64,000 nucleotides of DNA from NCBI GenBank assembly GCA_000165345.1, contig CM000429.1:192001-256000 (forward strand), given 5' to 3'. Below the pieces are notes generated by a model. It made no database searches. It was given only the letters and a program-made list of their open reading frames with translations, and had not been told where the DNA came from. Shown here one piece after another: positions 10,772 to 41,232 of the stretch. Numbering within the stretch: position 1 is the stretch's first letter; every line of letters starts with the position of its first letter. The position numbers and the translations under genes are program-made.

Positions 10772-11419
10772 ATGAGTACTCAAGCATTGGAGAAAATTAC
10801 TAATAAATCAGAAAAGGAAAAGATCAAAAAGGAACTATACGATGAGTACGAGATTTTCAAAGTTTCAAACATTTACAATGAAATGGACTTGACCAAAGCC
10901 ATTTCAAATGTGATTTCCTCGATTATTACTCTCTCAGGCCTGGAAGAACAGATTCAAATTTACCACAGAAAAAATATCCTAATGTTAATTGCAACTGTTT
11001 TTGGAATATTTGGAGCTGTAGTATTCAAATTTCCAAAAGATCAATGGTTTATTCTTATTTGTGTTGTAGGATTCTTTCTTTCCATGTTTGGTACATTTCT
11101 AATTGATGTAAAATCTCCATTTTCAGGTTTCACAAACTCATATATTGTTCCCAAAAAACTCCAAGAGAAAGGTGGATTTTCCTTAAAGAATATATGGAAC
11201 TATGATAAGGATGCATGCTACATTACACCAAAATTAAATCGTGCTTCAAACGATATTGAATTTTTGCTTCAAAATCAAAACCACCAAGTGTCAAAAACCA
11301 TATATGTTGGAAAATTATTCACACTTGACGGTTATATAAATACTGATGAAATTTTTGAAGTTATTAGCAAGCTAATTGTGGAATTATATGAAAAATCTAA
11401 CGAAAAGAAGAAGAAATAA
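10772..11419 (+). CDS. Small membrane protein (215 aa) with two closely spaced TM helices. Its size and topology resemble signal peptidase complex subunit 2 (SPC25), but that assignment is tentative.
   Basis: ATG start. Two hydrophobic spans (ILMLIATVFGIFGAVVF and FILICVVGFFLSMFGTFLI) sit mid-protein, followed by a charged tail. The resemblance to SPC25 is by topology only. Confidence 0.5.
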   Translation: MSTQALEKITNKSEKEKIKKELYDEYEIFKVSNIYNEMDLTKAISNVISSIITLSGLEEQIQIYHRKNILMLIATVFGIFGAVVFKFPKDQWFILICVVGFFLSMFGTFLIDVKSPFSGFTNSYIVPKKLQEKGGFSLKNIWNYDKDACYITPKLNRASNDIEFLLQNQNHQVSKTIYVGKLFTLDGYINTDEIFEVISKLIVELYEKSNEKKKK

Positions 11420-12198
11420 ATAAATAATTTACATTTTGATTTTTTCACTTCCAAATGAAATTATTCCTATATTACGTGTATTAGTTTCAAGGCAAAATGC
11501 CAGGAAATGGGCTGGCTTTTAGATATTTACTTAGCCAGATATCGCTAATTATAAAGTTATCTTCTTTAATTTCCTATCCCAATTGTTATTTCTTTTTTCT
11601 CCCTGTTCACACGAAATTCCCTTTAATTTATCTTATTTTACCCACAGCCATGTAAAATAACTGTTCCACCCCCCATTCTGACTGCACTGATTAAACTGCG
11701 GGTGAATGGCGCCAATTCCACTTTGACATTTAATTAATAATCAAGTCAAAAAAATCCTAATTCCAATAAATCAAAAAAAAAAAGAAATCCCATTAAAATG
11801 GGAAGAGTATATATTTGAGATATTTTCGGAAGGGATTTGATAAAATGCCGAAGTTATCTGAATATTCAAAAGAAATTTCAAAAATAAGACGTAAGTTTTA
11901 CTTTTCCAGGCTCCGACTTAGTATTTCCAGCCCAGCAGCGCAATGTGGGAAATTGCATGCATGCAACACTGTTTGCAAATTTGCTGCCATTTATGTGTGC
12001 TGACATTAACAGAAAATAATTAACTTGAAAAATGTGAAATTTTAGAATCTCTAAATTATTCCCTTTTGGAAAATGACTCTGAAGTTCAGAGGTTAATTCA
12101 AAACAACGATCGTGCCCCTAAGAACAAAAACAAGACTTTTAATACTAAGAATGTGTGTGAATCATTTGCAATATTGTCAAATATGGAGGATCCTGCAG

Positions 12199-12273
12199 GT
12201 AAGTAAAGAAACATGAATTGCACTCGAATTCCTCACTTTAAAACAACTAACAATTCAATATTTTTTCAATTTA
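12199..12273 (+). other. Predicted 75-nt GT-AG intron (GTAAGTAAAG...TTTTTCAATTTAG). It joins a short first exon (ATG at ~12183, encoding MEDPA) in frame to the 12277 ORF.
   Basis: The sequence ATGGAGGATCCTGCAG|GTAAGT...TTTAG|AGTTGGATTTAGTC splices in frame to give M-E-D-P-A-E-L-D-L-V-T-E-G. The unspliced read hits TAA inside the intron. The ORF-track start at 12277 is a TTG, not ATG. Coordinates are +/-1. Confidence 0.45.
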
Positions 12274-12276
12274 GAG

Positions 12277-15200
12277 TTGGATTTAGTCACGGAGGGCCCA
12301 AAGGAAAAATACAAAAAACAGATTCTAGGACTAATGAAGAATGATTTAAAGAAGAATAAGGAATTAAAAAGTGTGAGACAAGATAGAAACTATACGACAA
12401 AGAGTATTGGAATGGAATCATCTCTGAAACTTGGAATGAAAGCATTTTCATATTCAAGTGGTGCAGAGTGGAATCCAATGAATCCAAGCCTAATATGGAG
12501 AAAAAACAAGGAAAATGACGATGCATCCACAATTTCTTCATCATTCTCAAACCAAAAAGCTTTAATGAACAACCCAGGAATTATTCGAGAGTTGGAGAAT
12601 GAACTTGGACCAGTTAAAGGTTCAATCATGCTTGCAGCAACAGGAGAAAAGCTTCGAGATATTAATATTGGAAACTCTTCGATTGCAAAAGAAGTTTGGA
12701 AAGATGAACCTTTGTCTCATATTACAAAACTTACTCAGCAAGAAAGAGAGAAACAACAACTGGGATATAATTACCAAGAATCGATATATGACAATTTTGG
12801 GGTAAAACCAACAGAACTGGTAAAAATGACTGATTTTGGAAACATTAAATTACCAGTGAGAAGTGTCTTGACAATGTCTCAAGAAGCATCAAAAGAGGTG
12901 GAAAAGAAAATTTTGGATAAAGAAGGAAATCTAGAAATGAAACTTTTGAATGCAGTAGATCCCTTTAAGCAAAAATTCCACCATAATGATATGCCAGAGA
13001 ATAGGATGTTCTGTGATAGGAAGTCTTCAAAAATAGATAGACTTTATAAAAACCTTAATAATTTGAAGGATCAGATTCTTTTTGAGGATGAAATTTCCAA
13101 AGATAGAGAGAAAGAACATGAAAATGACTTGATGAAGTTACGAGCTTTTAATACTAACTTTGAAAAGCATCTTGGATTTAAACTTAGTGGGAAAGTTTCT
13201 TTAGATAATATTGGAGAACGAGTCATTTCCTTGGGAACTGATAATACTTCAAAGCAAATAGGAAAAGAGTTCAAAGAATTAAGACGACAACTTGGTTGGG
13301 AAAAAAATACAGAAAAAAATTTTAAGAACGAAGAAAAAGAATTTAATATGTATGGAAATCTTTTGGACCAAAAAAATATATCAAATGAAGCTCTCATTGA
13401 TCGTCTAATTGAAAATACAACTCTTTATCCTTGTTTTGATGAGGTACTCTTTGAAAATACTTTCAGAATACATCCTGACAAAAATAGAAATCATGTCTCA
13501 TTGATAACAGACTATTTGGATGCTACCTCAGTCTTAAGTTCCAGTGATATCCTTCTTAATATTCACAAAAAACAGTATACTCCTCCTTTGGCTGAGAACT
13601 TTCCCAAAGGTCTCCCATCCATTGTCCAAGATCCTCGTGTAATTTGGCAAAAAGAGTTCCTTAATATTCCATATGAAGTTACAGCTGATTTGATTAGAAA
13701 GATTCAAAGAGGTTTCTGGGACGAAATTTCGAATGATATAGCAAAAAGCAGTTATGGATCAATTTCAATATCTTCTGTTGAATCTATTACTAATATCAAG
13801 AAGTTTATTTTGAATGAACTCAGCTATAATTCCATATATAACGTTGATGAACCATTTGATGTCTCACCACCGAAACTACCTCCTATTGAAAGAGAACAAC
13901 AAGGAAGGATGTTAGGATCTAGTTCAAAATTTCAGCAACAAAATAACAAACTCGTTATAACTCCAAAGTTGAAATTTGGATTTGGAGGTACGAACCTAAT
14001 TTCTGGATCTATCTCTAAAATTGGAAATAAAATATTTAAAGGATCTATTTCTAGTCCTAATTCTAATGAGAGTTCCAAACCAGAGACTTTCAGAAATGAT
14101 GTCACTGTTGTTAAGTACATTCCTGATTGTGAACTATATGAGACAGCACTTTGGGGTAGATATGAATTTCCAAATGATGATTCCAATAAAGGAATTATAC
14201 GAAAAGTTAAGAATACAGAAATTAATGAAGGAGAACCTTTATATAGAGAGAATGTAATCTCAATGTCAAATGAATGGAGAGAAGATATGGAAAAGCAAAT
14301 TAGTGAAAGAAAGAAAGGAGTAGAGATGCTCGTTAATTCTCAAGAAAATAGGTCTTCTCTTCAAAACTTTACTTTGAACTTAAACAAAATTATTGATTCA
14401 AAGATTCAAAATATGGATAAAAAAGAACTCTCAAAGTTGAAAGAAATCCTTAAAGATCGTGAAGGTTTAGAAGAATTAAGTAAGACTCAGATTTCTGGAA
14501 AAGGAACAACTCTAGGAGACAATAATAAGATTCATAAAAATAGTGGACAGTTAAATATAACAGGATTTAAAAATATTGGATTTTCTAGTATTGGAATCAA
14601 TAAAGAAGGTACTTATAATCATTTGGATTCTCCAGATATCAGTAAAATTGGAATTCAACAAAACAATATCTTCAAAAAGATTAAAAATTCTCAGAAAACT
14701 GTTAAGAATAAAGTTGGTATGGCAAATATAAATGATGACTATGATGATGATGAAAGTTCTGTTAGGGACGATGATTCAGAAGAATTTGAAGATCTTTCAA
14801 GTGAAAATGAGGAAGATTATAGACAAATCTGTGAGACAATTCACATTGCTCCATGGGAGCCAACTAACTTAATGATGACAAAGAATCTATTCAAATCAAC
14901 AAATAATCTCTTTTCTACTTTATCTATTTTGATAACAAAAGATTCAAAGATTAAGAGTAGAGTTGAGCTTCATGAACTTGGAGAACATGGAATTATTGTT
15001 TGGATGTCTCGTGATCCTATTGGACTTAAAGAGAAGATCTTAAATTGTTGTACCGATATTAAAACAAAATTAAGAGTTAAAGGTGGGATATACTTCACTC
15101 CTGATAGTGATATATCTCCAATTGAACCTTGTACTGAAATCCCTGGAAATTTTACTTTTTCAGTAACTGGAGTTAATTTGCCTCATCTTATTTTGAATAA

Positions 15201-16530
15201 GAGTTCTATCAAACAATTGGAATGTGTTAAGAAATATGTCAAAAATTATGAGAATTCATTCAATGAACTTTCTAATAATGGTAGTATAAGTAATTTTAAT
15301 GGGAATGATCCAATGTATCAAAAATCTCTAAATACAGGAATTAAATACAATGAAAATAATCTTGTTAATGATTCTCCAATATTAGAACAAACTCAATTTG
15401 GAATCAATGCAGATACAGATATTGAAATAATTACAAGATATGATAAGAAAAGCATTAATAATATTGATGTAATGAATTTGATTCCAGCATTGAATAATAA
15501 TCAGATTTCTGGTCAGAATACAATTTTGGTAGTATCAGAAAATCCTTTTATAAAAGGAATACTTCCATTAACTTTGTCAGATTTTCCAAAGACTACAATG
15601 AAGTTTAGTTTAAGAAGGAATCGTTTATTATTGTGGAGATCAATAAAGTGTCAGATTTGGAAGACTCAATATATTGAATATTGTTTTAAGAGTTCAGTAG
15701 TTCCAGCAAAAAAGGTGATAACATTTATTTCAAATGCTTTTTTGAAATCAAATACTTCAAATTCTTTTGATATGGGAGGATTAATATTTAACGAGACTTT
15801 ATTTTCTCATTGTATTAATGTTGCTTTATCCAGAAAAGACCCTAAAGAAATGATTTTCAGGGGTTGTTATATGGGAGATGATGGTTTTCATGCAATTTTC
15901 CCTTTACTAACTCAAGTAAAATCTTTAGGAAAATTGGATTTGGGGATGAATAATTTAACAGCTCGTTCTTTACCTTTAATATTAGAGGTTGTGAAAGGAT
16001 GTAATTGTAAGAAACTCTTATTGGACTTTAATAATTTGGGTCCAAACAAGACAAAGCGTGAATTTTCAGTCTTCTTTAAACATATACTATTTTCAACGAG
16101 TATAGAACATTTGAATCTTTCAAGAAATAAAATTAATGGAAGATGTATTGACTCTTTGGATACTATTTTGGATAACTTGGGGATGAAAAATAAGACTTTA
16201 GAGACTTTAAGTTGGTGTTCAAATGGAAATACTCAACCTGAGATTGAGACATTATTACTTGCTCTTCAACCTTGTTGTGTAAATCTTTCAAAGGTGTTTT
16301 TAGGAGGAAATCCTATTGAAAGGATTGATGCTTTTAAAAGGAGATTTAGTCCAATTCGTATAATCATGGAGGATATAAGTTCTCATTATGTTACCAAAGC
16401 TGGAGTTAATCAAGGAGAAGGTAGCTACTTTTCAGATTCTAAAGAGAGAAAATCAAGAGGAATGAGTAGGAAAAGTCTTACATCAAATTCTAATTTGAGT
16501 TATACAAACTCTGGTTTGTTTAGTCAGTGA
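12277..16530 (+). CDS. Large hypothetical protein (about 1420 aa) with a C-terminal RNI-like leucine-rich repeat domain.
   Basis: A 4.25-kb open frame. The C-terminal ~250 aa show LxxLxLxxN repeats (LDLGMNNLT, LNLSRNKING, LETLSWCSNGN) typical of ribonuclease-inhibitor-like LRRs. The rest has no recognisable domain. Confidence 0.75.
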   Translation: MDLVTEGPKEKYKKQILGLMKNDLKKNKELKSVRQDRNYTTKSIGMESSLKLGMKAFSYSSGAEWNPMNPSLIWRKNKENDDASTISSSFSNQKALMNNPGIIRELENELGPVKGSIMLAATGEKLRDINIGNSSIAKEVWKDEPLSHITKLTQQEREKQQLGYNYQESIYDNFGVKPTELVKMTDFGNIKLPVRSVLTMSQEASKEVEKKILDKEGNLEMKLLNAVDPFKQKFHHNDMPENRMFCDRKSSKIDRLYKNLNNLKDQILFEDEISKDREKEHENDLMKLRAFNTNFEKHLGFKLSGKVSLDNIGERVISLGTDNTSKQIGKEFKELRRQLGWEKNTEKNFKNEEKEFNMYGNLLDQKNISNEALIDRLIENTTLYPCFDEVLFENTFRIHPDKNRNHVSLITDYLDATSVLSSSDILLNIHKKQYTPPLAENFPKGLPSIVQDPRVIWQKEFLNIPYEVTADLIRKIQRGFWDEISNDIAKSSYGSISISSVESITNIKKFILNELSYNSIYNVDEPFDVSPPKLPPIEREQQGRMLGSSSKFQQQNNKLVITPKLKFGFGGTNLISGSISKIGNKIFKGSISSPNSNESSKPETFRNDVTVVKYIPDCELYETALWGRYEFPNDDSNKGIIRKVKNTEINEGEPLYRENVISMSNEWREDMEKQISERKKGVEMLVNSQENRSSLQNFTLNLNKIIDSKIQNMDKKELSKLKEILKDREGLEELSKTQISGKGTTLGDNNKIHKNSGQLNITGFKNIGFSSIGINKEGTYNHLDSPDISKIGIQQNNIFKKIKNSQKTVKNKVGMANINDDYDDDESSVRDDDSEEFEDLSSENEEDYRQICETIHIAPWEPTNLMMTKNLFKSTNNLFSTLSILITKDSKIKSRVELHELGEHGIIVWMSRDPIGLKEKILNCCTDIKTKLRVKGGIYFTPDSDISPIEPCTEIPGNFTFSVTGVNLPHLILNKSSIKQLECVKKYVKNYENSFNELSNNGSISNFNGNDPMYQKSLNTGIKYNENNLVNDSPILEQTQFGINADTDIEIITRYDKKSINNIDVMNLIPALNNNQISGQNTILVVSENPFIKGILPLTLSDFPKTTMKFSLRRNRLLLWRSIKCQIWKTQYIEYCFKSSVVPAKKVITFISNAFLKSNTSNSFDMGGLIFNETLFSHCINVALSRKDPKEMIFRGCYMGDDGFHAIFPLLTQVKSLGKLDLGMNNLTARSLPLILEVVKGCNCKKLLLDFNNLGPNKTKREFSVFFKHILFSTSIEHLNLSRNKINGRCIDSLDTILDNLGMKNKTLETLSWCSNGNTQPEIETLLLALQPCCVNLSKVFLGGNPIERIDAFKRRFSPIRIIMEDISSHYVTKAGVNQGEGSYFSDSKERKSRGMSRKSLTSNSNLSYTNSGLFSQ

Positions 16531-19620: not shown

Positions 19621-21423
19621 CTATCTATTTTGAGTATTCATATTTTGTTCATTATATATGTTATTACCACCATTATTTAGAATTTGTCCTCTTTGAACTA
19701 AAGAGTTTCTTACTGCTTGCTTATTCATTTTTTCATTACCAACATGAGATTTATTAAAGTAAGCTGTTCCAATTGGATTTTTCCAAGTACAATACGTATA
19801 GAATGTATTTAAGCTTGGGAAACAACTTGATGATATTCTTGAAGTTGGGGCAATATTATAATTAAAATGATGATTTATATTCATTTGATTTGAACAGCAT
19901 TTACAACTCGGAAGATATGTATTGGCTTCTTCTGATTCGTGCTGAACTGGAATATTTTCATCAAGAATTTTAATTAACTGCAATTTAGTTGTACATTTCC
20001 AAGAATTATCTATTGTTATTGGTTGGTAATTTGTAAAAAAGTGATGAGATAAAGATTCTTGGGCAGAAATTCTTTTTGAGGGACTTTTTTCTAACAATCT
20101 CCTTAATAAATCAATTACATCTTCAACCCAATTAACATCTCCAAAAGTATAATGAGTTGAAATATGCTCATTAATTTTTTTTTCAATATTTGAAAAATCA
20201 AATCGAAGTATCTTTTCATTTGCATTGCAGTGGATTTGATGATTGCATTCAATCAATCTTTGACCTGTAATTAATTCATATAAAATAGTTCCAATAGACC
20301 ACATATCAACCTTTTCATCATAGTCATTATTTAAATATACTTCAGGAGCTGTAGCAAAGCATGTACAACAATGTCCTTTGAGTCTTCCACCAATTGACAT
20401 TCCTGAGTTTCCCAAATCACATATTTTCATTTGAGAGTTACAAGTATTAATATCTCGTACAACATCAGTTAACATCAAGTTTGCTGTCTTTAAATCTCTA
20501 TGAACAACTCCTTTTGAATGCATTTGACTTATTCCAACCAATAAAGTATACATTAGATTTCTCACAGAGTTTATTGGAAGACCGTTTTTGTATTTAAATC
20601 TTAAAAGCTGACGTATTGTTCCTCCATGAAATAGTTCCATAATCAAATACTCTCTATTGTCGGTTCTGTTTTGGAACCAATCCAATTTTTTTACAACATA
20701 ATCACTTTTGCATTTCTCCAAATAATCTGCTTCCCTAGAAAGTGAACCTGACATTTCTGATTTAACAGCAACAAATTCAAAAGTTTCTCTGTTTAAGCCT
20801 AAAAATACTTCTCCATTACCTCCCTTTCCAAGTGAAGCTTCAGTAAAAACCAAATAGCTTTTTCCCATATCCTCTTGGAGCTTTTTTTCGGTTGTATCTT
20901 TATATTTAGTTTTTGAGTTAGATATTTCATCTATTAACATTTTATGAGAATTTTCCTTGGAATTAATTTTATAAGCTTGGATTTCAGTATTGAACATAAT
21001 CTTTGAACCAATCAAATCGGAAACATCCTGGGTTTTCAATACAAATGCAATATTACACTCATTTGGTTGAGATGTCATTACTCTTAATTTAGTACCAGAA
21101 GAAACCACAATAATATCTGGAAATAGTGGGATTGGTAAATAAGATCCTGTAACACAATCTTTGTAGAAGTATTTACATGACTCTGCTTGATTGTTGTCTC
21201 CTTTTCTTGTTAGCCTAAATTCACGATCCTCATTCTTAATCCATAGGTCAAAACTTGTTGTAATGCAAGCTGGTGGATCCGGATATGAAATATCAACGTC
21301 TGTGATTCCATCTTCAGGACCTATTCTGTATCTCACGTTTGCCCTCAGAGTGTGGACTTGTACAATTGGAGAGACTTGAAGTAGGAAATAAATGTTTTCT
21401 AAATTATTCAAAATTGAAACCAT
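19621..21423 (-). CDS. Ser/Thr protein kinase (600 aa) with a ~200-aa N-terminal extension.
   Basis: It has a glycine loop GKGGNGEVF, VAVK, HRDLKTANLML, DLGNSGM, the APE-region APEVY, and DMWSIG. Confidence 0.8.
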   Translation of the reverse strand: MVSILNNLENIYFLLQVSPIVQVHTLRANVRYRIGPEDGITDVDISYPDPPACITTSFDLWIKNEDREFRLTRKGDNNQAESCKYFYKDCVTGSYLPIPLFPDIIVVSSGTKLRVMTSQPNECNIAFVLKTQDVSDLIGSKIMFNTEIQAYKINSKENSHKMLIDEISNSKTKYKDTTEKKLQEDMGKSYLVFTEASLGKGGNGEVFLGLNRETFEFVAVKSEMSGSLSREADYLEKCKSDYVVKKLDWFQNRTDNREYLIMELFHGGTIRQLLRFKYKNGLPINSVRNLMYTLLVGISQMHSKGVVHRDLKTANLMLTDVVRDINTCNSQMKICDLGNSGMSIGGRLKGHCCTCFATAPEVYLNNDYDEKVDMWSIGTILYELITGQRLIECNHQIHCNANEKILRFDFSNIEKKINEHISTHYTFGDVNWVEDVIDLLRRLLEKSPSKRISAQESLSHHFFTNYQPITIDNSWKCTTKLQLIKILDENIPVQHESEEANTYLPSCKCCSNQMNINHHFNYNIAPTSRISSSCFPSLNTFYTYCTWKNPIGTAYFNKSHVGNEKMNKQAVRNSLVQRGQILNNGGNNIYNEQNMNTQNR

Positions 21424-22604
21424 GAGTTTTCTTCTTCAGTGGCTTGAAATATTAACACATCCCTACTAATTTGTCAAAGTAGACTCTGTTTTTTTTTTAA
21501 ATAGATTTAATAATTTTCTTTAATTGTTATTAAATTAATTAGTAAAATATTAGTTAATTATTGAATAAACAAATTCATATATAAATATATATATTTTGAT
21601 ACTTAATTTTTTTTTTCTCAATTTTTTAATTCTTTCTGCAAATTATTATTTCAAGATGAAAGCACTTTATAATTGAATAAAAGACAAACTCTAATTATTT
21701 TTTTTTTCTTCTCTTGTGAGAAAATTGAGCAGTCTTTTATGCTGTCCTTTTCCCTAATACTCTCAAAATCCCATTATTTTCTTCTTTATTAATAAAATTC
21801 ATATATTACATATATACCCATGCACGTATTTAAATATAGTCAATTTTTTTTTTAAAAATTTGCAACAAGACTGCACACAACACGTGTCATTTTGCATGTA
21901 CAAAATTGCAATACCGGCGTGGCAGCAGTTCCACATGAAAATACACCGGTACTAAAACACTTGCATAAATTTTTGTCCACATGACATTGGAATTATAAAA
22001 AAAATGACAACGGATGAGATACAAAATTTGAATATTTTACTTTAAATAATTGACAAAATAATGAGTTTTTAATACGAAAACAAGATATGAATTTAATGCA
22101 AACATATAAATGTATATATTTTTAAAATTATTCTCTCGATAATTGGGGACTTTTATATTAGTCTAACCATTTTCAAAAGGAGCGCATGCAGGTTATCCAC
22201 ATGCACATGCACTTTGGCAAACATTTTTTTAGCAATAAATTACCGGCATGATAATACAGATTTTAAGTCTTAACTAGAAATTGAGGATTTTTTTTTAATT
22301 AAAAATTAAGATGCTAGTTATTTTAAAAAGATTTAATCTATAAAAAAAAATTGACTTTTTATTCCAAATTAATATTTTAATGAGGGGACAAGGTAGAAAT
22401 ATATTTGTGGGGAGCTTGGTGGGGCAATGCAAAAACAATAGATTTAATTAGGCGGAAACAGAATAAAAAAAAAAAAAATTAAGATCACCAAGAGAAAAAA
22501 GACCAAGTTTGAATAGGTAACAAGAATCAATTAGCTAAATATCGAGAATTTAAGTTCGACCCAGTATTGCCAAATTTTCTATAAAATAGTGAAATGTTGG
22601 CCTG

Positions 22605-24899
22605 ATGGAACTGAGTAAAAGGTCGAACTGTTATGAAGCAGAATACACTGCTAACGAGTTAGCAATAGCAGCTCAAAGAAGAGATAAAAACACACTACAT
22701 AATATTATTCAACAATTAATAGAAACAGGGAATACTGGCATTTTGAATGAATCAAATGCGCTCCACTGGTCTGTATATTATAGATGGGATGATGTTTCCA
22801 TTCACTTATTGAGCTTAGGTTGTGATCCATTTATGGGAGATATTAATGGAGATACAACTGTGCATTACTGTATTAAATCTGGAAACTTTTCCATGCTAAA
22901 GTATTTATATGAAAAACATGGGAACAAAATTTTTTATGTTAAAAATAGGAACCAGTTTGGATTAATGCTCACTGCTGCATCAGAAGTGGCCGAAGGTAGA
23001 GTTCAAGACTTACTGAGAGTAATGGAATGGCTTTATCTTCAAGGATATTCTCTAGAAGAGCAGGATATTTTAGGACAAACTCCTATATTCTGGGCAACTA
23101 AAAGAGGAAATTACGGTATTATTCAGTGGCTAATAAGTCATGGAGCAAACATAGGACATAGAGATCATAAAGGGAATACATTGCTACATGCTGCGTGTTC
23201 AGGAGATGTTGATGATGAAACAGTTAGCTTTTTGTGCGATTTAGGTCTAATTCATCTAATATCCCATTCAAATTACGAAAATCCGGCTGTTGGCAATACT
23301 GCTTTCCAGATTTGCTGGACTAGGAAAAATTATTGGTTGGCATTAATGCTTAATTTTTGGTATTATCATAATAAATTATTTGGAAGGATTTCCCTACTTA
23401 GAAACCCATATGCTGTATACTACTGGTTTATTTCTATTCTGAATTTATTGGTAGTTTTTATTATGGTCAGCACCCTCAAATCATATAGAGAATACTTGGA
23501 TGGAATTTACCTGGGTTATTTCTATACTTGGATGATTTTATTTGCAGCAGCTCAACTATTTTGGGTGTTATCAAATATTGGAAATGATAATTATGTTAAA
23601 CATCCGATCTATCAAAAAATAATCCCCAAACTTCCACGCGATAAATTACTTTTATTAGAGTCACATGGACTTTACTTACCTTTGCTAACTCCACAAGCTA
23701 ATAAGCTGGGAAAGAATTCCAGTATTTATCAGTTAATGCTTAAGGAAAATGAACAGATTCAGCTTAATAATCAACTTATTGACATGAACAAACTCTTATT
23801 TAATGGCGATCATTTTAACATTAGCAAGTATAGAGAAAAATATAATAATCACATTAGTAGACAAATTGAACTTTCCAATGAAATTATTGGGCTGATGCCT
23901 TTTGTTGCAAAGGAAAGGCAATCTAATAATTCAAAGATTTATATTGATATTGTTGAAGGAAAACCAATAAATTCGACTGCTCCAGTTTTACCAAAAATAT
24001 GTGTTACTTGCAGAACAGAAAGGCCATTTAGAGGACATCATTGTTCAGATTGCGGATATTGTATACAAAGATTTGACCATCATTGCGTATGGATTGATTC
24101 TTGTGTTGGCTATGGGAATCAAAGAGCATTCTTCTTCTTCCTAAAGTTTCTCACAATCTCATTCTTCCTCTACTACTACTTGTTCCAACAATATTGCTCT
24201 TTCAGATTCAAGTTTTCAGCATCTCTCAAGAAGATTTCATCCACTGATTCGAATAATAACTGGTTTACAATGCAGACTGGAGATCTTTTCCTTGGAGTTG
24301 GTGACACTGAGGGTATTTATTTCCACGAAAAAGCCTATTATTTCATGACATCTGATCCTTGGTTCGCTTTAATAATGTTCAACAGCATTATGAATATCCC
24401 ATGGATGATTTTCGTATTGTATCTATTTATCAGACATGTTAAATCAATCATGTCTAACGTGACATTTTATGAGTATTATAAGAAACCTGAAGCAATTAAG
24501 AAGAGATTTGCTGGACGTAATACAGAAGGATTTTGTTATGACATGCAGGGGAGGACATTTTCCACTTGTATTCGAAGTGCTTTTGCTTACTTTACCAAGA
24601 ATAACTCCTGGGATAATTTGGATTTCTTTACTCATATTAGAGAGCCTGAAAAGATTCTTGGTAATACTACAATGCCTATTCATATTGAAAGCAACGCTCC
24701 ATATCAGAGTTTATCTCAAGTTCCTCCAAGTAATGATATTACGTTTATTAACGAGAATGGAGATCCTATACCAAATATATTTCCTTCTCACGTTTCCACA
24801 AGCCACCCATACTATCATTCCCAATTTAACTTCCCATCAAACTCATCATCAACTTTTTATCAAGTTAATCCATATGCTGGCAACCATATGTATAATTAA
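22605..24899 (+). CDS. Ankyrin-repeat DHHC-type palmitoyltransferase (Akr1/zDHHC17-like).
   Basis: The N-terminal ~250 aa contain ankyrin repeats (GDTTVHYCIKSGN, GQTPIFWATKRGN, GNTLLHAACSG). Multi-TM segments follow. The DHHC-CRD is CVTCRTERPFRGHHCSDCGYCIQRFDHHCVWIDSCVGYGN. Confidence 0.85.
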   Translation: MELSKRSNCYEAEYTANELAIAAQRRDKNTLHNIIQQLIETGNTGILNESNALHWSVYYRWDDVSIHLLSLGCDPFMGDINGDTTVHYCIKSGNFSMLKYLYEKHGNKIFYVKNRNQFGLMLTAASEVAEGRVQDLLRVMEWLYLQGYSLEEQDILGQTPIFWATKRGNYGIIQWLISHGANIGHRDHKGNTLLHAACSGDVDDETVSFLCDLGLIHLISHSNYENPAVGNTAFQICWTRKNYWLALMLNFWYYHNKLFGRISLLRNPYAVYYWFISILNLLVVFIMVSTLKSYREYLDGIYLGYFYTWMILFAAAQLFWVLSNIGNDNYVKHPIYQKIIPKLPRDKLLLLESHGLYLPLLTPQANKLGKNSSIYQLMLKENEQIQLNNQLIDMNKLLFNGDHFNISKYREKYNNHISRQIELSNEIIGLMPFVAKERQSNNSKIYIDIVEGKPINSTAPVLPKICVTCRTERPFRGHHCSDCGYCIQRFDHHCVWIDSCVGYGNQRAFFFFLKFLTISFFLYYYLFQQYCSFRFKFSASLKKISSTDSNNNWFTMQTGDLFLGVGDTEGIYFHEKAYYFMTSDPWFALIMFNSIMNIPWMIFVLYLFIRHVKSIMSNVTFYEYYKKPEAIKKRFAGRNTEGFCYDMQGRTFSTCIRSAFAYFTKNNSWDNLDFFTHIREPEKILGNTTMPIHIESNAPYQSLSQVPPSNDITFINENGDPIPNIFPSHVSTSHPYYHSQFNFPSNSSSTFYQVNPYAGNHMYN

Positions 24900-25233
24900 A
24901 CAAAAAATCTCAATTACTAAAATTCAACTTGGATATAAGACAGGTAAATCTTAATATTGTTTTCACCTTCTAAATTCCAGCATTCAATAATCTCGTCAAT
25001 TTATTCTGAATTCAAATATTCACATTTTTTTTGCATGCTTTCTATAATTTAATTCCGGTTGCCTTGCAAAGTTCCAAAGTTTTGGCGGGATATTCAAAGT
25101 CAATTTTTACAAGTGAAATTAGTTCTACGAGGAGAAAATATAAATACTATTAAGGAAAAATATTACTCTGAAATAAAGGATCACTGTTGAGCACTGAGAT
25201 ATGAAAGTGGAGAGTTAGGGGACTAAGGCTAAG

Positions 25234-28218
25234 ATGACAAAAAAGAGACAGGCTAGTCAATCGAATAATGAAGCCAAATTAGTAGAAAGTGATACGGATT
25301 TGGGGTCAATATACTCAATTAGCAATTTCGACAGTATTCTATTGGCTTGGGATTTTTTTAAAGATATTAAGGAGGAAGTTTTTGGGGTGGAAAGGCCAGA
25401 TGTCGTTAATTCATTTGATATTTCTGGAGAAACTTGTCAAGTTAGAGATAACCCAACAAGATTTGCTACTTCCAAGGAGTATTTGGATTATTTTTTCCCA
25501 CTCTTTTTGTTGGAATGCCAACAATCTATTCAGAGAGCTAAACAAATAGAGATGAGTGACTTTGACACTTTTTCACTCAAGGATATTAGAGCTAATAATT
25601 CAAATAAATTGGAAGAGTCGAACTTTCTAACCTTGGTATTTGAAAGAAGGAGGGCTGATGAATTAATATACTTTTCTCCACAAGATTTAGTACTGATCAT
25701 ATTTGACCCTGAGTTTAAGTCGGAGGAATTTGATGATAATTTAAAGCACGTAATAGGGGTAGTTCAAGGTTCAAATTCAAATGGGAGAGTGACTATCACA
25801 GTCTTAAATCCTAATTATTATGTTGATGATAAAACAATGAAAAGAAAGATAGCATCTTTTACTAGTCAAGATCGGTTGGTTTCGAGAATGAAATCTTTCA
25901 GTGATTCATTGGGAAATAAGGAGTTTGGACAAGATACTTCCAATGCTTTGTCACAAAGCTCCTCTCAAGCTTGGTATTTATCAAGAATAACCTCATTTTC
26001 GACCAACTATAGGGAGCTTAGCGGCTTATTTTCACTTCCGGATCTTTTATTAAAAGATGAACTTTTGTGCAGAGGCCTAACTTGTGAGCACACTATGAAA
26101 ATTCCCACTTTATTGCAGGAAAAGTTGAAAGAAAAATATAATCCTTCTCAAATGAGCGCATTAAGCGAGTGTCTTAAATATAGTGGAATAAGCCTTATTC
26201 AAGGCCCACCTGGGACTGGTAAAACTACCACAATTATTGGAATCATTAGCGCCCTCTTGTCATCAACATTTGAAGTTAAGAATGCTTCAGAAGACAGTAG
26301 CGATGAAGAGAATATTGAAACTAAGAAAAGGAAATCTAATGAAGAAAATATCTCAGAAATGTATGCACCAATTCTTAGAGCTAAACCCTGGTGTTACGAT
26401 CCAGACTACGTACCTTGGTATGACTCAGAAATGAAAAATCTCAGGATTTTCAGGCATAACAAAGTTGAAATTAAAAAAGTAACTTTGGACACAAGTAGTA
26501 GAAAAATGGGGCCTCGAAAATTACTTGTTTGCGCTCCTTCTAATGCTGCTATTGACGCCATTGTTAGAAAACTAGTCAGGAACCCTATAACTGGAGAAGG
26601 TGGTATATTAGACAATACCGGTGAATATTATTCCCCCACATTAGTTAGGGCGGGACCAAATTTTCACCCAGATTTGCATGACTTAAGTTTAGAGTACAAG
26701 TTACAACAAAGACTACAAAGAAATGGATTTGATGCAAAGAATTGTAAACAAGAAATACGTCAGCAAACTCAGTGGAAGATTTTACAAGAGTCACAAATTG
26801 TTTGTGCAACTCTCTCAGTATGTGGGAGCAAGGAGCTAATTTCAATACTAAGTCAGAATGGCAGAATGCAGGCCGCGGGAAGTGGTGACAGGACCGCATT
26901 GTCATTTGATACTGTTATAATTGATGAAGCTTCTCAAGGCGTTGAGTTATCTACTTTGATTCCATTGAAGCTTGGATGTAAGAGGCTGATTTTAGTTGGG
27001 GATCCAAAACAGCTTCCAGCAACAGTACTTTCGAGACGAGCAATAGAACGAAAATATGACATTTCTCTTTTCCAGAGACTTCAAATGAGTGGACAACAGG
27101 TAGTAATGTTGAGTGTTCAGTATAGAATGCACCCACAGATTTCTGCTTTCCCCTCGAAGCATTTTTACGACGGAGAATTACATGATTATAAGGATATACT
27201 CAAAACAAGAGCTCCTGTTGTAACTTGGCAAGATATCCCAATTTTTAAACCTTTCACTTTCTTTTCAGTGAATTCAGAAGAGGAGCAGGGAAAATCGATT
27301 TCAAATCTACTAGAAGCAGACTTTGTTTGCCAAATTTTGGAGCTTCTAGGGCTTATTCTTTATGAACATCAAAAGAAATTAACAGAAAATACAGACTTGG
27401 GAGAACCCAGTAAAAGATGGTATGAAAGGATTGCAGTCATTTCTCCATATAATGAACAAGTTAAAATTATAAGGAAGAAAATCAAAGAGAAGTTTGGACT
27501 AAGTCCTGAAACTATTTGTCCTATTGATGTTTCAACTGTTGATGGTTTTCAAGGTCAAGAAAAAGATTTTATAATATTTTCAGTTGTAAGATCTCAGTAT
27601 ATAGAAGAAGATTCTCTGAATAACGCTGATAATAGGAAGACAAATGCAGGGTTTATTGCAGACAGGAGGCGTATAAATGTTGCTTTAACAAGAGCAAAAT
27701 ATAACTTATGGATTGTAGGTAATAGTAGATATCTTCTTGGAAATCCAGAATGGCGTAGTCTTTGGGATTATTCTTGTAAGAACAATTCTCAATTTTCTGT
27801 TGACTTTAAGAGGATTGGTTCAACAGAAAATTATTTGAAACTTTGGTTATATGGGTTTCTACAACGTAAGGAATCTTGTAGAAATGCTCTTCGACAAGAG
27901 GTTCCTGAATTTGTTCAAAATCTTACATTGGATTGTTCAGTACTTGAGAAGAATAAGGATACTTTAAATTCAGTCACGGAAATTAAGGCAAAAGTGGATT
28001 CATCATTCTTTGTTGACCTTAAAGAAGATAGCCAAGGCTATGAATCCAAGAATAAAAGAGGTTCTAAAGTTTTCCAGACTGAATCAAAGCCTATTGAAAT
28101 TGAGGAAAACGGAGTAATTCGTAAATTCAGAAATCTAGACCTTGATCTTTTCTGTGATATTAATGAGTATGAATCCAGTAAAAATAAAGATCTTGAGTCA
28201 GAAAATGCTGCTGAGTAA
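25234..28218 (+). CDS. Superfamily-1B RNA/DNA helicase of the UPF1/SEN1/DNA2-like family. It has no UPF1 CH zinc-knuckle domain.
   Basis: Walker A GPPGTGKT, motif II DEASQ, VGDPKQLPATV, QYRMHPQISAFPSKHFY, DGFQGQEKDFIIFSVVRS, RRINVALTRAK. Confidence 0.85.
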   Translation: MTKKRQASQSNNEAKLVESDTDLGSIYSISNFDSILLAWDFFKDIKEEVFGVERPDVVNSFDISGETCQVRDNPTRFATSKEYLDYFFPLFLLECQQSIQRAKQIEMSDFDTFSLKDIRANNSNKLEESNFLTLVFERRRADELIYFSPQDLVLIIFDPEFKSEEFDDNLKHVIGVVQGSNSNGRVTITVLNPNYYVDDKTMKRKIASFTSQDRLVSRMKSFSDSLGNKEFGQDTSNALSQSSSQAWYLSRITSFSTNYRELSGLFSLPDLLLKDELLCRGLTCEHTMKIPTLLQEKLKEKYNPSQMSALSECLKYSGISLIQGPPGTGKTTTIIGIISALLSSTFEVKNASEDSSDEENIETKKRKSNEENISEMYAPILRAKPWCYDPDYVPWYDSEMKNLRIFRHNKVEIKKVTLDTSSRKMGPRKLLVCAPSNAAIDAIVRKLVRNPITGEGGILDNTGEYYSPTLVRAGPNFHPDLHDLSLEYKLQQRLQRNGFDAKNCKQEIRQQTQWKILQESQIVCATLSVCGSKELISILSQNGRMQAAGSGDRTALSFDTVIIDEASQGVELSTLIPLKLGCKRLILVGDPKQLPATVLSRRAIERKYDISLFQRLQMSGQQVVMLSVQYRMHPQISAFPSKHFYDGELHDYKDILKTRAPVVTWQDIPIFKPFTFFSVNSEEEQGKSISNLLEADFVCQILELLGLILYEHQKKLTENTDLGEPSKRWYERIAVISPYNEQVKIIRKKIKEKFGLSPETICPIDVSTVDGFQGQEKDFIIFSVVRSQYIEEDSLNNADNRKTNAGFIADRRRINVALTRAKYNLWIVGNSRYLLGNPEWRSLWDYSCKNNSQFSVDFKRIGSTENYLKLWLYGFLQRKESCRNALRQEVPEFVQNLTLDCSVLEKNKDTLNSVTEIKAKVDSSFFVDLKEDSQGYESKNKRGSKVFQTESKPIEIEENGVIRKFRNLDLDLFCDINEYESSKNKDLESENAAE

Positions 28219-28544: not shown

Positions 28545-29453
28545 TTAGTCATCATCTGGAAGTCCAAAGTTATTATTGATTTCTTTTTCAGAAATTCCAG
28601 GCATTTTTTTTTTGATCCATTGTCTTAGACTACAGACATTATCTTCCCAAATAGATAATTCTTGGTTAGTATTTGATAAATTTTCATTCAGGATTTTAGG
28701 ATTATCTTTGATTATAATGTTGATATTATCTAACCTAATAACAAGTTCTTTCTGTTCTTTCAGAATTTGATCTAATTCTTGACTTTTTTTTTCTCTGATT
28801 TGATGCTCAGGAGAATCAGTTTCTTTAGAATCTTTGATCATTTTTTCAAGTGATTTAATTTGTTCTTTGGAATCTTGGATTGAATTTCTGTTTCAATATA
28901 ATAAGATAAAATTCAAGTATAAGTGAGTTATATATGTTTAATAACGTAAGTATACAATGATAAAAATATTAATAAGAATTTGAGATATTCTAATTTTTGT
29001 GATTAAACTTACTTTAAATATTCCAACCTGTTTTCTTTGCTAAATTTAGCAGCACTAGGAAGAGCCCAAAAAATATTAAGAGATCCAATTTTGTCACTTA
29101 CAACCAAAGAATCGTCTACAAGACTTTGCAAAACGTCTTTGACAGTTTGTTCAATTATTCCACATTTCTTTCCTAATTTTTCTATTTCTTTTAAATTAAA
29201 ACATTCTTTCTATAATGAAATTATTAAAGGAAATAAATATTTGTAATTCAAAAATTATATTCACTTTTTATTGCTTTTCTCAATAATTTTCAAACTGATA
29301 AAACTTACTTTTTCGTATAGAGAGTTCAATAATCTAATGAATTGTTCGGAAAATAGAAATTTTAGTTACATAATTTTTACAAATTCTTTCATTTAAACAA
29401 TCATAAGCTTACCTTGAACGTTTCTCTTCCATAGAAACTCCTCTTTTAGACAT
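28545..29453 (-). CDS. MND1: Meiotic nuclear division protein 1 (MND1) homolog. It has 4 exons: complement join(29413..29453, 29309..29333, 29013..29209, 28545..28887), 201 aa.
   Basis: The hand-spliced product is MSKRGVSMEEKRSR-LLNSLYEK-KECFNLKEIEKL...VKDVLQSLVDDSLVVSDKIGSLNIFWALPSAAKF...WEDNVCSLRQWIKKK...FGLPDDD. It is collinear with human MND1 as I remember it (MSKKKGLSAEEKRTRMMEIF...VKEVLQSLVDDGMV...YYWAFPSKA...RWTDNIFAIKSWAKRKFG...GIPEDFDYID). All three introns are GTAAGY...YAG (79, 99, 125 nt) and all phases are consistent. The ORF track shows only the last exon (28545..28841). Confidence 0.75.
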
Positions 29454-29722: not shown

Positions 29723-30182
29723 TTAGTTACTTTTATTAGCTTGCCTTTTTTCAAATTCTTGTAATTCGTGGTGCAGTTGTTTAATAAACTCATCATCCAC
29801 ATCCTCGTCATCCCAACCTAAAATAAAAAAAAAATAAATATATATAAATAAAATTTGTTCATGTTTATCATTAAAATGATAATTCAAATAAGGAGTAATC
29901 TTACCTGTTGCATCCCAGTTTTCATCCCATTCTCCAACATCAGGATCAATCTGGGTCTCAATATTGTCTAATTTGGGGTTAGTATAATTCTATAAGAACT
30001 TAATGGAGGACTATGAAAGATGATATGAATAATTCTTCCCTTATTATTTGATCATATATCTTTTTCCGTCCACAAATTAAAGAAAATTACTTACCTAAAT
30101 CATCGAACTCCTCAAGTTCATCATCTATTTCATCAATAAATGAGTTAATGTTATCATTTCCAGTTTCCTCATTGGATGCCAT
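29723..30182 (-). CDS. DSS1: DSS1/SEM1 (26S proteasome / BRCA2-associated small acidic protein) homolog. It has 3 exons: complement join(30095..30182, 29905..29967, 29723..29817), 81 aa.
   Basis: The spliced product is MASNEETGNDNINSFIDEIDDELEEFDDL-DNIETQIDPDVGEWDENWDAT-GWDDEDVDDEFIKQLHHELQEFEKRQANKSN. It has the conserved acidic W-rich core (WDENWD...WDDEDVDDEF) of DSS1 (human, as I remember it: ...EEDDEFEEF...[24 protein letters not shown]). The introns are GTAAGT...TTAG (127 nt) and GTAAGA...TTTTAG (87 nt). Both junctions are phase 1 and consistent. It is absent from the ORF track. Confidence 0.75.
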
Positions 30183-30979: not shown

Positions 30980-31432
30980 ATGACATTGTATGAAACAGCA
31001 GCTCCAAGAGTAATTAAAACAGCTAAGGATGTTCCAGCTGGAATCTTGATTGAAAAATTCGCTCAACAATTAAAGAAGGGTGGCAAGATGACAATGCCAG
31101 AATGGGTTGACCACGTTAAGACTGCTTCATCAAAGGAGTTACCACCACAAAACTCAGATTGGCTCTACATTCGTGCTGCTTCAATTTTGAGACACTTATA
31201 TGTCAGACCAAATGTTGGTGTTGGTGCTCTTTCTAAGTTCTATGGTAGAAAGCAGCGCAATGGGACAGCTAGAAACCACTCAGCTGTTGCTTCACGTGGA
31301 ATTATTCGTTACTGCTTAATTCAGCTCCAATCTCTTGGTTTAGTAGAATTCAATCCAAATACAGGTACCCGTAGACTTTCTCCACAGGGTCAACGCGAGC
31401 TTGACTCCATTGCTAGACAATGCAAAGCATAA
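30980..31432 (+). CDS. RPS19: 40S ribosomal protein S19e.
   Basis: A 150-aa ORF with the S19e hallmarks PEWVDHVKTASSKELPP, WLYIRAASILRHLY, GVGALSKFYGRKQRNG and LSPQGQRELD. Confidence 0.9.
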   Translation: MTLYETAAPRVIKTAKDVPAGILIEKFAQQLKKGGKMTMPEWVDHVKTASSKELPPQNSDWLYIRAASILRHLYVRPNVGVGALSKFYGRKQRNGTARNHSAVASRGIIRYCLIQLQSLGLVEFNPNTGTRRLSPQGQRELDSIARQCKA

Positions 31433-31670
31433 GCCTGAGGATCTTTTCCTTCTTGCACTTTAAAGAAGGTATGATCTTAAATATGAAATCTACTTTAAAT
31501 CTTATTAAGATAAACTTGTTGAGGTGAAATACCGTTATTTATCTTTCTAGTTTTATCGTATTTTATTATTAGCCATTAATTTTTAGTAAATCACGCAGTT
31601 TTTTTGTCTAATTACTCTATTAATCACGGTTGTAATTGCTGACTTTTGGGATGCAGAATATTTGAATGGA

Positions 31671-31790
31671 AGGAGGGGGATCTGAGTAGGGAAGGGTAAG
31701 GGGGAAAGGCTGGAGATGAGGGGAGGAGGCGGAGGTGAGATAAGAGGAAAAAAGGTAGGATATCAGGGGGAGAGGAGAAGATAAAATCGA
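31671..31790 (+). repeat. A ~120-nt purine/G-rich tract with multiple GGGG/GGAGG runs. It lies in the convergent spacer between RPS19 and UBL5.
   Basis: ggaaggagggggatctgagtagggaagggtaagggggaaaggctggagatgaggggaggaggcggaggtgagataagaggaaaaaaggtaggatatcagggggagaggagaag. It is strongly strand-asymmetric, almost pure purine. Confidence 0.6.
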
Positions 31791-31957: not shown

Positions 31958-32317
31958 TCAATTATAATACAGTTCCAGACCCATTCCATCCTTGATTTCG
32001 TAGTCTTCCAAAGTAATATGATCTTTGTAAACATTGTACCATTTCTGAATTCTTATTTTGTCCCATCTTGTACCTAATAAAATTTCAATAAGAATTAATA
32101 TTTCATGTTAATATGTATAAAAATGATTCTAATATTGTAAGTTCCCAAATAAAAATTACCACATGAAAAAAATATAGGCAGAATCATTTTGCAATAACCA
32201 GTCAAACTCACCTGTAACTTCAGCAACAAGCTTTTTCAAATCTCCAATTGTATCATCTGGGTTACACTTGACCCGAATCTTCTTCCCCAGCCGATCATTT
32301 AAAACAACCTCGATCAT
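31958..32317 (-). CDS. UBL5: Ubiquitin-like protein 5 (UBL5/Hub1) homolog. It has 2 exons: complement join(32212..32317, 31958..32073), 73 aa.
   Basis: The spliced product is [73 protein letters not shown]. Against human UBL5 as I remember it ([73 protein letters not shown]), most positions are identical. The intron is 138 nt (GTGAGT...TTATTAG) and the junction is phase 1. It is absent from the ORF track. Confidence 0.82.
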
Positions 32318-41158: not shown

Positions 41159-41232
41159 GCTGTCTTAGCTCAGCACGGTAGAGCGCCAGCCTTTTAAGCT
41201 GGTGGTCATGGGTTCGATCCCCATAGACAGCG
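41159..41232 (+). tRNA. tRNA-Lys (anticodon TTT/UUU), 74 nt. A T5 tract immediately 3' fits a Pol III terminator.
   Basis: I folded it by hand as a cloverleaf: acceptor GCTGTCT/AGACAGC, D-arm GCTC..GAGC, anticodon stem CCAGC/GCTGG with loop CTTTTAA, T-arm ATGGG-TTCGATC-CCCAT, discriminator G, then TTTTT. Confidence 0.85.

Follow-up and report, generated by a model that had tools for sequence, protein, structure and literature searches.

The one-intron Hub1/UBL5 gene of Cryptosporidium parvum and its genomic neighbourhood

Gene model and annotation status

The DNA analysed here, called the window in the following, is a stretch of 64,000 nucleotides from chromosome 1 of Cryptosporidium parvum. 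Its minus strand carries a two-exon gene for a small ubiquitin-like protein of the UBL5/Hub1 type. Exon 1 (32212..32317, 106 nt) starts with the ATG at 32317, contains codons 1-35 together with the first base of the Gly36 codon, and has the 3' end ...GTT ACA G. It is separated from exon 2 by a phase 1 intron of 138 nt (32074..32211) with the donor CAG/GTGAGT and the acceptor TTTTATTAG/G, so that the intron ends in TTATTAG/G. Exon 2 (31958..32073, 116 nt) provides the last two bases of codon 36 and all codons up to 73, and closes with the TGA at 31960..31958. Joined, the exons give a 222-nt coding sequence for 73 amino acids, in which the split codon reads G/GT (Gly36, after CDS nucleotide 106). 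These bounds come from a splice reconstruction made from the sequence and are equal to those of the public gene model. The initial annotation had proposed a UBL5/Hub1 gene with one 138-nt intron, a junction 32212/32073 and an interruption of codon G36, and the same coordinates and split codon were recovered here.

When the intron is left in place, the reading frame stops after 53 codons, and two more stops lie in the intron (three in-frame stops in total). There are 22 single GT..AG excisions that keep the frame open from the ATG to the TGA, and only one of them, the removal of the 138-nt intron, yields a product that is colinear with the family. The intron has a GC content of 22.5% as compared to 36.5% in the exons. 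For the whole C. parvum genome, 22% GC in introns, 32% in exons and introns of 99 nt on average have been reported (Isaza et al. 2015, PMC4637869); thus, by its GC content, the intron looks typical for the genome. It has the sequence properties of a U2-type spliceosomal intron, i. e. GT...AG ends, a GTRAGT-type donor, AT-richness, in-frame stops, a frame that is restored on removal and a conserved position. In an Rfam scan of the whole 64,000-nt window, the intron and its surroundings showed no structured RNA.

In four fetched segments the window showed 0 mismatches to the C. parvum record CP029780.1 (GCA_031892065.1), to positions 197478..261477 of which it corresponds. In the annotation of this record, a gene of 360 nt that encodes 73 aa occupies exactly the site of UBL5, surrounded by genes for a protein kinase, an eIF4A-type DEAD-box helicase, a cyclophilin, ribosomal protein S19e, an 81-aa protein, MND1 and a helicase. 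The product is found letter for letter in EAZ51324.1, QOY43541.1 (CPATCC_000336), WKS75985.1 and KAL5370325.1, the first of which bears the title 'ubiquitin-like protein, partial [Cryptosporidium parvum Iowa II]'. The CPATCC annotation, the introns of which are stated to be 100% RNA-seq supported (Baptista et al. 2022, PMC8744675), contains exactly the spliced 73-aa product. As the same gene is called in a C. parvum record with which the window agreed wherever the two were compared, the gene and its exact product were already known, and the initial annotation had correctly found an annotated gene once more.

The gene had initially been described as absent from the list of open reading frames. 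This holds at the default cut-off of that list (at least 60 aa), because the ORFs that contain the exons of UBL5 measure 53 and 34 aa. The idea of an unannotated gene was nevertheless rejected, as the gene is publicly annotated and its exons are simply too short for a prokaryote-style ORF list.

Identity and fold of the product

The product was expected to match human UBL5 at most positions, and 54 of its 73 residues (74%) are indeed identical (E 3.3e-35 in a search of PDB sequences). Mouse and human UBL5 were the top PDB matches, with E values of 3e-35 to 1e-34. Yeast Hub1 was found with E 7e-23, and single-domain ubiquitin-type chains reached at best about 1e-5 to 1e-3. A database of 5.8 billion proteins gave 1,494 homologues (E 2e-42 for the product); among the matches listed, the named ones are UBL5/HUB1 proteins from alveolates, plants, oomycetes and others, with 79-99% identity. 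Pfam placed the product in the generic ubiquitin family only (PF00240, 29.7 bits).

Alignment to the ubiquitin-like protein 5 family, which had been suggested as a check of the gene, was colinear, with D22 and the di-tyrosine end conserved in 25 homologues. In this alignment 31 positions are invariant, including D22, G36 and Y72, and Y71 is nearly so. The C-terminus of the product reads ...LELYYN, and there is no Gly-Gly anywhere near the end. A C-terminal Tyr-Tyr followed by one variable residue, in place of Gly-Gly, is the hallmark of the UBL5/Hub1 family (literature including PMC2408969).

An AlphaFold2 model of the product (pLDDT 94.7) has the order strand-strand-helix-strand-strand. The best Foldseek match to the predicted fold was 4PYU, human Hub1 with the HIND peptide of Snu66 (TM 0.98, rmsd 0.6 A), and after it came the yeast Hub1 structures 1M94, 3PLU and 3PLV (59% identity) and then ubiquitin (25-28% identity). 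Four properties of UBL5/Hub1 proteins are thus found in the product: a similarity far above that to ubiquitin, a length of 73 aa with a YYN end and no flexible C-terminal tail, a predicted beta-grasp fold and the Asp22 surface. The C-terminal Gly-Gly for E1 that marks conjugatable modifiers (ubiquitin, NEDD8, SUMO) is absent. Assignment of the product as a UBL5/Hub1 orthologue is supported by its sequence and diagnostic residues, and by the fold predicted for it.

The surface by which human Hub1 contacts HIND is formed by M1, V16, K17, C18, N19, D22, K29, L30 and A33 (Ammon et al. 2014, PMC4141198). In the C. parvum product, D22 and seven of the eight others (M1, V16, K17, C18, N19, K29, L30) are as in the human protein, and A33 is replaced by E33. 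Hub1 binds HIND non-covalently, with a salt bridge between D22 and R127, and activates Prp5 (literature including PMC4141198); human cells do not strictly require the contact between D22 and HIND (PMC4141198). In Plasmodium, HIND is present on both Snu66/SART1 and Prp38 (literature including PMC4141198). A six-frame translation of the window contained no HIND-like motif, which is expected as the genes for the partners may well lie elsewhere.

Residues 33-34 of helix 1 (encoded at 32212..32230 of the window) vary within the genus. C. parvum and C. hominis have Glu-Val here, C. bovis/xiaoi have Ile-His, and most eukaryotes have Ala-Gln. Judged by their position, these changes could have a slight effect on how Cryptosporidium Hub1 binds its partners.

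Conservation of the intron

An intron after CDS nucleotide 106, in phase 1 and within Gly36, is common to C. parvum, C. hominis, C. bovis/xiaoi, Plasmodium relictum and Theileria annulata. The C. hominis intron likewise measures 138 nt and differs from that of C. parvum at 7 positions, as compared to 5 differences in the 222 exonic bases. The intron of C. bovis and C. xiaoi has 75 nt and the donor GTAAGT, and except for its ends it is unalignable with the C. parvum intron. Between the coding sequences of C. parvum and C. bovis/xiaoi, 27-29 codon differences are synonymous and only 7 non-synonymous, and third positions take 31-33 of the 43-45 substitutions in the exons. The HUB1 intron of P. 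relictum has 80 nt. T. annulata has an intron at the equivalent codon; in the annotation an N-terminal extension of 3 aa offsets its position. Over the apicomplexans compared, intron lengths are 138, 75, 80 and 86 nt, and the donor hexamers at the conserved site are GTGAGT, GTAAGT, GTTAGT and GTAAAT. This conservation of position across Apicomplexa supports the gene model of UBL5.

The extension in the T. annulata model (CR940352.2), MGQ, is brought about by an extra 80-nt intron with the odd donor GTACCT. T. parva UBL5 begins with MIEV like every other orthologue, and from the sequences the MGQ extension looks like an annotation artefact.

Outside the Apicomplexa, the coding sequence of UBL5 has no intron in the oomycete Aphanomyces or in banana (Musa). 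The intron is therefore common at least within the Apicomplexa and not universal. For UBL5 of Symbiodinium microadriaticum, no model with GT/GC-AG boundaries and up to three introns reproduced the protein, which is probably due to the non-canonical splice sites of dinoflagellates.

The donor GTGAGT had been singled out in the initial annotation as differing from the GTAAGT of the other local introns. It does differ from the donors of all five neighbouring introns, which are of the form GTAAG-N. The exact hexamer GTAAGT applies to three of the five only; the others are GTAAGA and GTAAGC. The notion of a special or weak donor was rejected: GTGAGT fits GTRAGT, it is preceded by a consensus CAG, and the C. 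bovis/xiaoi orthologue has GTAAGT. Nothing in the UBL5 sequence itself suggests an unusual behaviour.

Neighbouring genes and other features of the window

Two more spliced genes lie on the minus strand next to UBL5. A DSS1/SEM1-like gene (29723..30182) codes for 81 aa and has introns at 30094..29968 (127 nt, GTAAGT) and 29904..29818 (87 nt, GTAAGA). MND1 (28545..29453) codes for 201 aa and has three introns, at 29412..29334 (79 nt, GTAAGC), 29308..29210 (99 nt, GTAAGT) and 29012..28888 (125 nt, GTAAGT). Both models were rebuilt from the annotated spans and the lengths of the products. The rebuilt proteins have exact copies in public records, and both genes are already annotated. MND1 bears the public name 'Meiotic nuclear division protein 1' and matches the Pfam family Mnd1 with E 2e-23; the DSS1-like protein matches DSS1_SEM1 with 21.9 bits, below the cut-off of 32.2. 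The gene for ribosomal protein S19e (RPS19, 30980..31432, plus strand) is intronless and lies between the DSS1-like gene and UBL5, convergent with the latter. The proposal that MND1, DSS1 and UBL5 form three spliced genes within 4 kb is thus accurate, the span being 3,773 nt with RPS19 among them.

The acidic 81-aa protein (on the record 'hypothetical protein CPHLJ_1g845') is called 'hypothetical' or 'uncharacterized' in C. parvum, C. hominis, C. ubiquitum and C. tyzzeri, and only a single C. meleagridis record names its relative 'DSS1/SEM1 family protein'. At the C. bovis/xiaoi loci no gene is called between RPS19 and MND1, the syntenic place of the DSS1-like gene, which may simply be unannotated there.

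RPS19 and UBL5 converge on an intergenic region that contains a G/A tract, purine-rich and about 120 nt long (31667..31790, plus strand). This tract consists of 85% purines and reaches up to 63% GC as compared to 31% in the window. The tract is almost unchanged in C. hominis and absent from the shorter spacer of C. bovis/xiaoi. It would fall within the 3' UTRs of RPS19 and UBL5 or immediately past them.

A further claim was that the local intron density is far above that of the rest of the window. This is true in so far as six of the eight introns counted lie in the cluster, a count in which 21420..25957 is covered by prokaryote-style calls only and the dynein gene runs off the start of the window; it is weakened by another spliced gene at 11845..16530 (plus strand). 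This gene codes for a protein of 1,484 aa with no Pfam match on record, contains 231 nt of intron and has a long ORF (12277..16530) after short 5' exons. Most likely it has two introns, 11891..12045 (155 nt) and 12199..12274 (76 nt), both with the donor GTAAGT. In all other annotated genes of the window the span equals three times (product length + 1), so that outside the cluster only 11845..16530 adds introns. For the left part of the window, Logan assemblies carry prokaryote-style gene calls, which are uninformative on introns, and the NCBI-annotated loci were used.

Two features lie farther from the cluster. A tRNA-Lys (anticodon TTT) at 41159..41232 on the plus strand, in a 2.3-kb gap between a kinase gene and a zf-A20/zf-AN1 gene, is the only Rfam match at the gathering threshold in the window. 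A 215-aa protein encoded at 10772..11419 (plus strand), unannotated on the record, shows a near-threshold match to the Pfam family SPC25 (signal peptidase subunit). The match scores 22.8 bits against a cut-off of 24.3 and covers 155 of the 159 profile positions.

Discussion

We consider it very probable that the locus is the single-copy C. parvum orthologue of Hub1/UBL5, transcribed from the minus strand and carrying one U2-type GT-AG intron of 138 nt, the removal of which gives a 73-residue beta-grasp protein; a role in splicing would be assigned to it by homology.

The protein could in principle be a conjugatable modifier of the ubiquitin/NEDD8 type that is covalently attached to substrates and is not Hub1 at all. 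Such a reading could draw on the Pfam result, which gives only the generic ubiquitin family PF00240 (29.7 bits), on the ubiquitin fold, which also matches the model with a TM of about 0.94, and on Hub1 conjugates in the early yeast literature (PMC2408969). However, the protein ends in YYN and has neither a C-terminal Gly-Gly nor a tail, its identity to ubiquitin is 25-28% as compared to 74% for UBL5, the E values of about 1e-5 to 1e-3 for ubiquitin chains are far from the 3e-35 for UBL5, and Hub1 is regarded as acting non-covalently in the current literature (including PMC4141198). A covalent modifier is therefore extremely improbable. Hardly any more credit can be given to unproductive splicing of the locus, be it a pseudogene or a gene whose intron is mostly retained to yield a truncated 53-aa peptide. 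The unspliced 53-aa ORF is present, as such a peptide would require, but across Cryptosporidium and Plasmodium strong purifying selection acts on the two exons, and the splice-site dinucleotides and the phase are kept while the body of the intron diverges. Moreover, the donor context CAG/GTGAGT is near-consensus, the introns of the published annotation are reported as RNA-seq supported (PMC8744675), and the gene is apparently the sole Hub1 copy, in line with one copy of HUB1 in the apicomplexans surveyed (PMC2408969).

As to the grouping of MND1, the DSS1-like gene and UBL5, one could think of a meaningful intron-rich or co-regulated domain. Six of the eight introns counted in the window are crowded into 3.8 kb. 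The order eIF4A / cyclophilin / UBL5 / RPS19 / (DSS1-like) / MND1 is conserved in C. hominis and, without a called DSS1-like gene, in C. bovis/xiaoi. When 10.8% of C. parvum genes are spliced (PMC4637869), each position has a chance of 0.0046 that at least three of four neighbours are spliced, and only about 0.11 such clusters would be expected in one window of 26-27 genes. Over the genome, however, simulation gives about 11 non-overlapping clusters by chance, so that a whole-genome scan should meet them, and genome-wide significance of the three-gene cluster was rejected on this ground. The functions of the three genes are also unrelated (meiotic recombination; proteasome lid/BRCA2 cofactor; splicing), the intronless RPS19 stands among them, and a further spliced gene lies 12 kb away. 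We therefore think a functional domain improbable and chance the better explanation of the grouping.

Returning to the Hub1 orthologue, we infer a mechanism as a splicing modulator by analogy with its relatives. Homology with Hub1 of yeast, human, plants and nematodes suggests that C. parvum Hub1 would be an unconjugated protein, a view taken because it has a Tyr-Tyr-Asn end and no Gly-Gly. The surface centred on Asp22 would make a non-covalent contact with the HIND helix of a tri-snRNP protein. In yeast and animals the partner that carries HIND is Snu66/SART1, in plants it is Prp38 (literature including PMC4141198), and in C. parvum it could be either or both. The opposite surface of Hub1 would bind the helicase Prp5/DDX46. 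By such binding Hub1 may tune how efficiently splicing proceeds and how far weak splice sites are tolerated in C. parvum, where roughly 10% of the genes bear introns. One might go further and regard the intron of the gene as an autoregulatory sensor by which Hub1 controls the splicing of its own pre-mRNA. What suggests this is that the gene for a factor promoting the use of weak 5' splice sites has kept its one intron at the same codon and phase in Cryptosporidium, Plasmodium and Theileria, whose genomes have lost most introns, with donors that drift from GTAAGT (GTGAGT, GTTAGT, GTAAAT). We regard it as very unlikely.

The finding in itself is of little importance, as the gene and its product were already public and apicomplexan HUB1 has been on record since 2008, as a single copy throughout those surveyed, Cryptosporidium included (Ponts et al. 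2008, PMC2408969). What the comparison adds is documentation of an intron position in Hub1 that is common across the Apicomplexa. The case also shows how short genes with several exons escape a prokaryote-style ORF list in an intron-poor eukaryote. We found no functional study of Hub1/UBL5 from Cryptosporidium in the literature; the protein could be of interest for how a reduced spliceosome handles a genome in which about 10% of the genes have introns.

Comparison with known Hub1 proteins

Human UBL5 (4PYU, 1P0R; in spliceosome structures 6AHD and 7ABG) has 73 aa like the C. parvum product and is colinear with it without a gap. Both proteins have the C-terminal Tyr-Tyr-X, D22 and the residues M1, V16, K17, C18, N19, K29 and L30. 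They differ in helix 1, where A33 and Q34 of the human protein are E33 and V34 in C. parvum, and in the last residue, which is Q in human and N in C. parvum. Yeast Hub1 (YNR032C-A; 1M94, and 3PLU/3PLV with the HIND of Snu66) has the same length and fold, 59% identity, and D22 and the di-tyrosine end in common with the product. The C. parvum protein is nearer to the UBL5 of animals, plants and alveolates than to yeast Hub1, as seen for example in the WY motif at positions 47-48, where yeast Hub1 has GG. The C. hominis 'Ubiquitin-like protein 5' is one residue apart (V4I); the C. bovis/xiaoi product is 90% identical to that of C. parvum, and the P. relictum 'ubiquitin-like modifier HUB1, putative' 89%.
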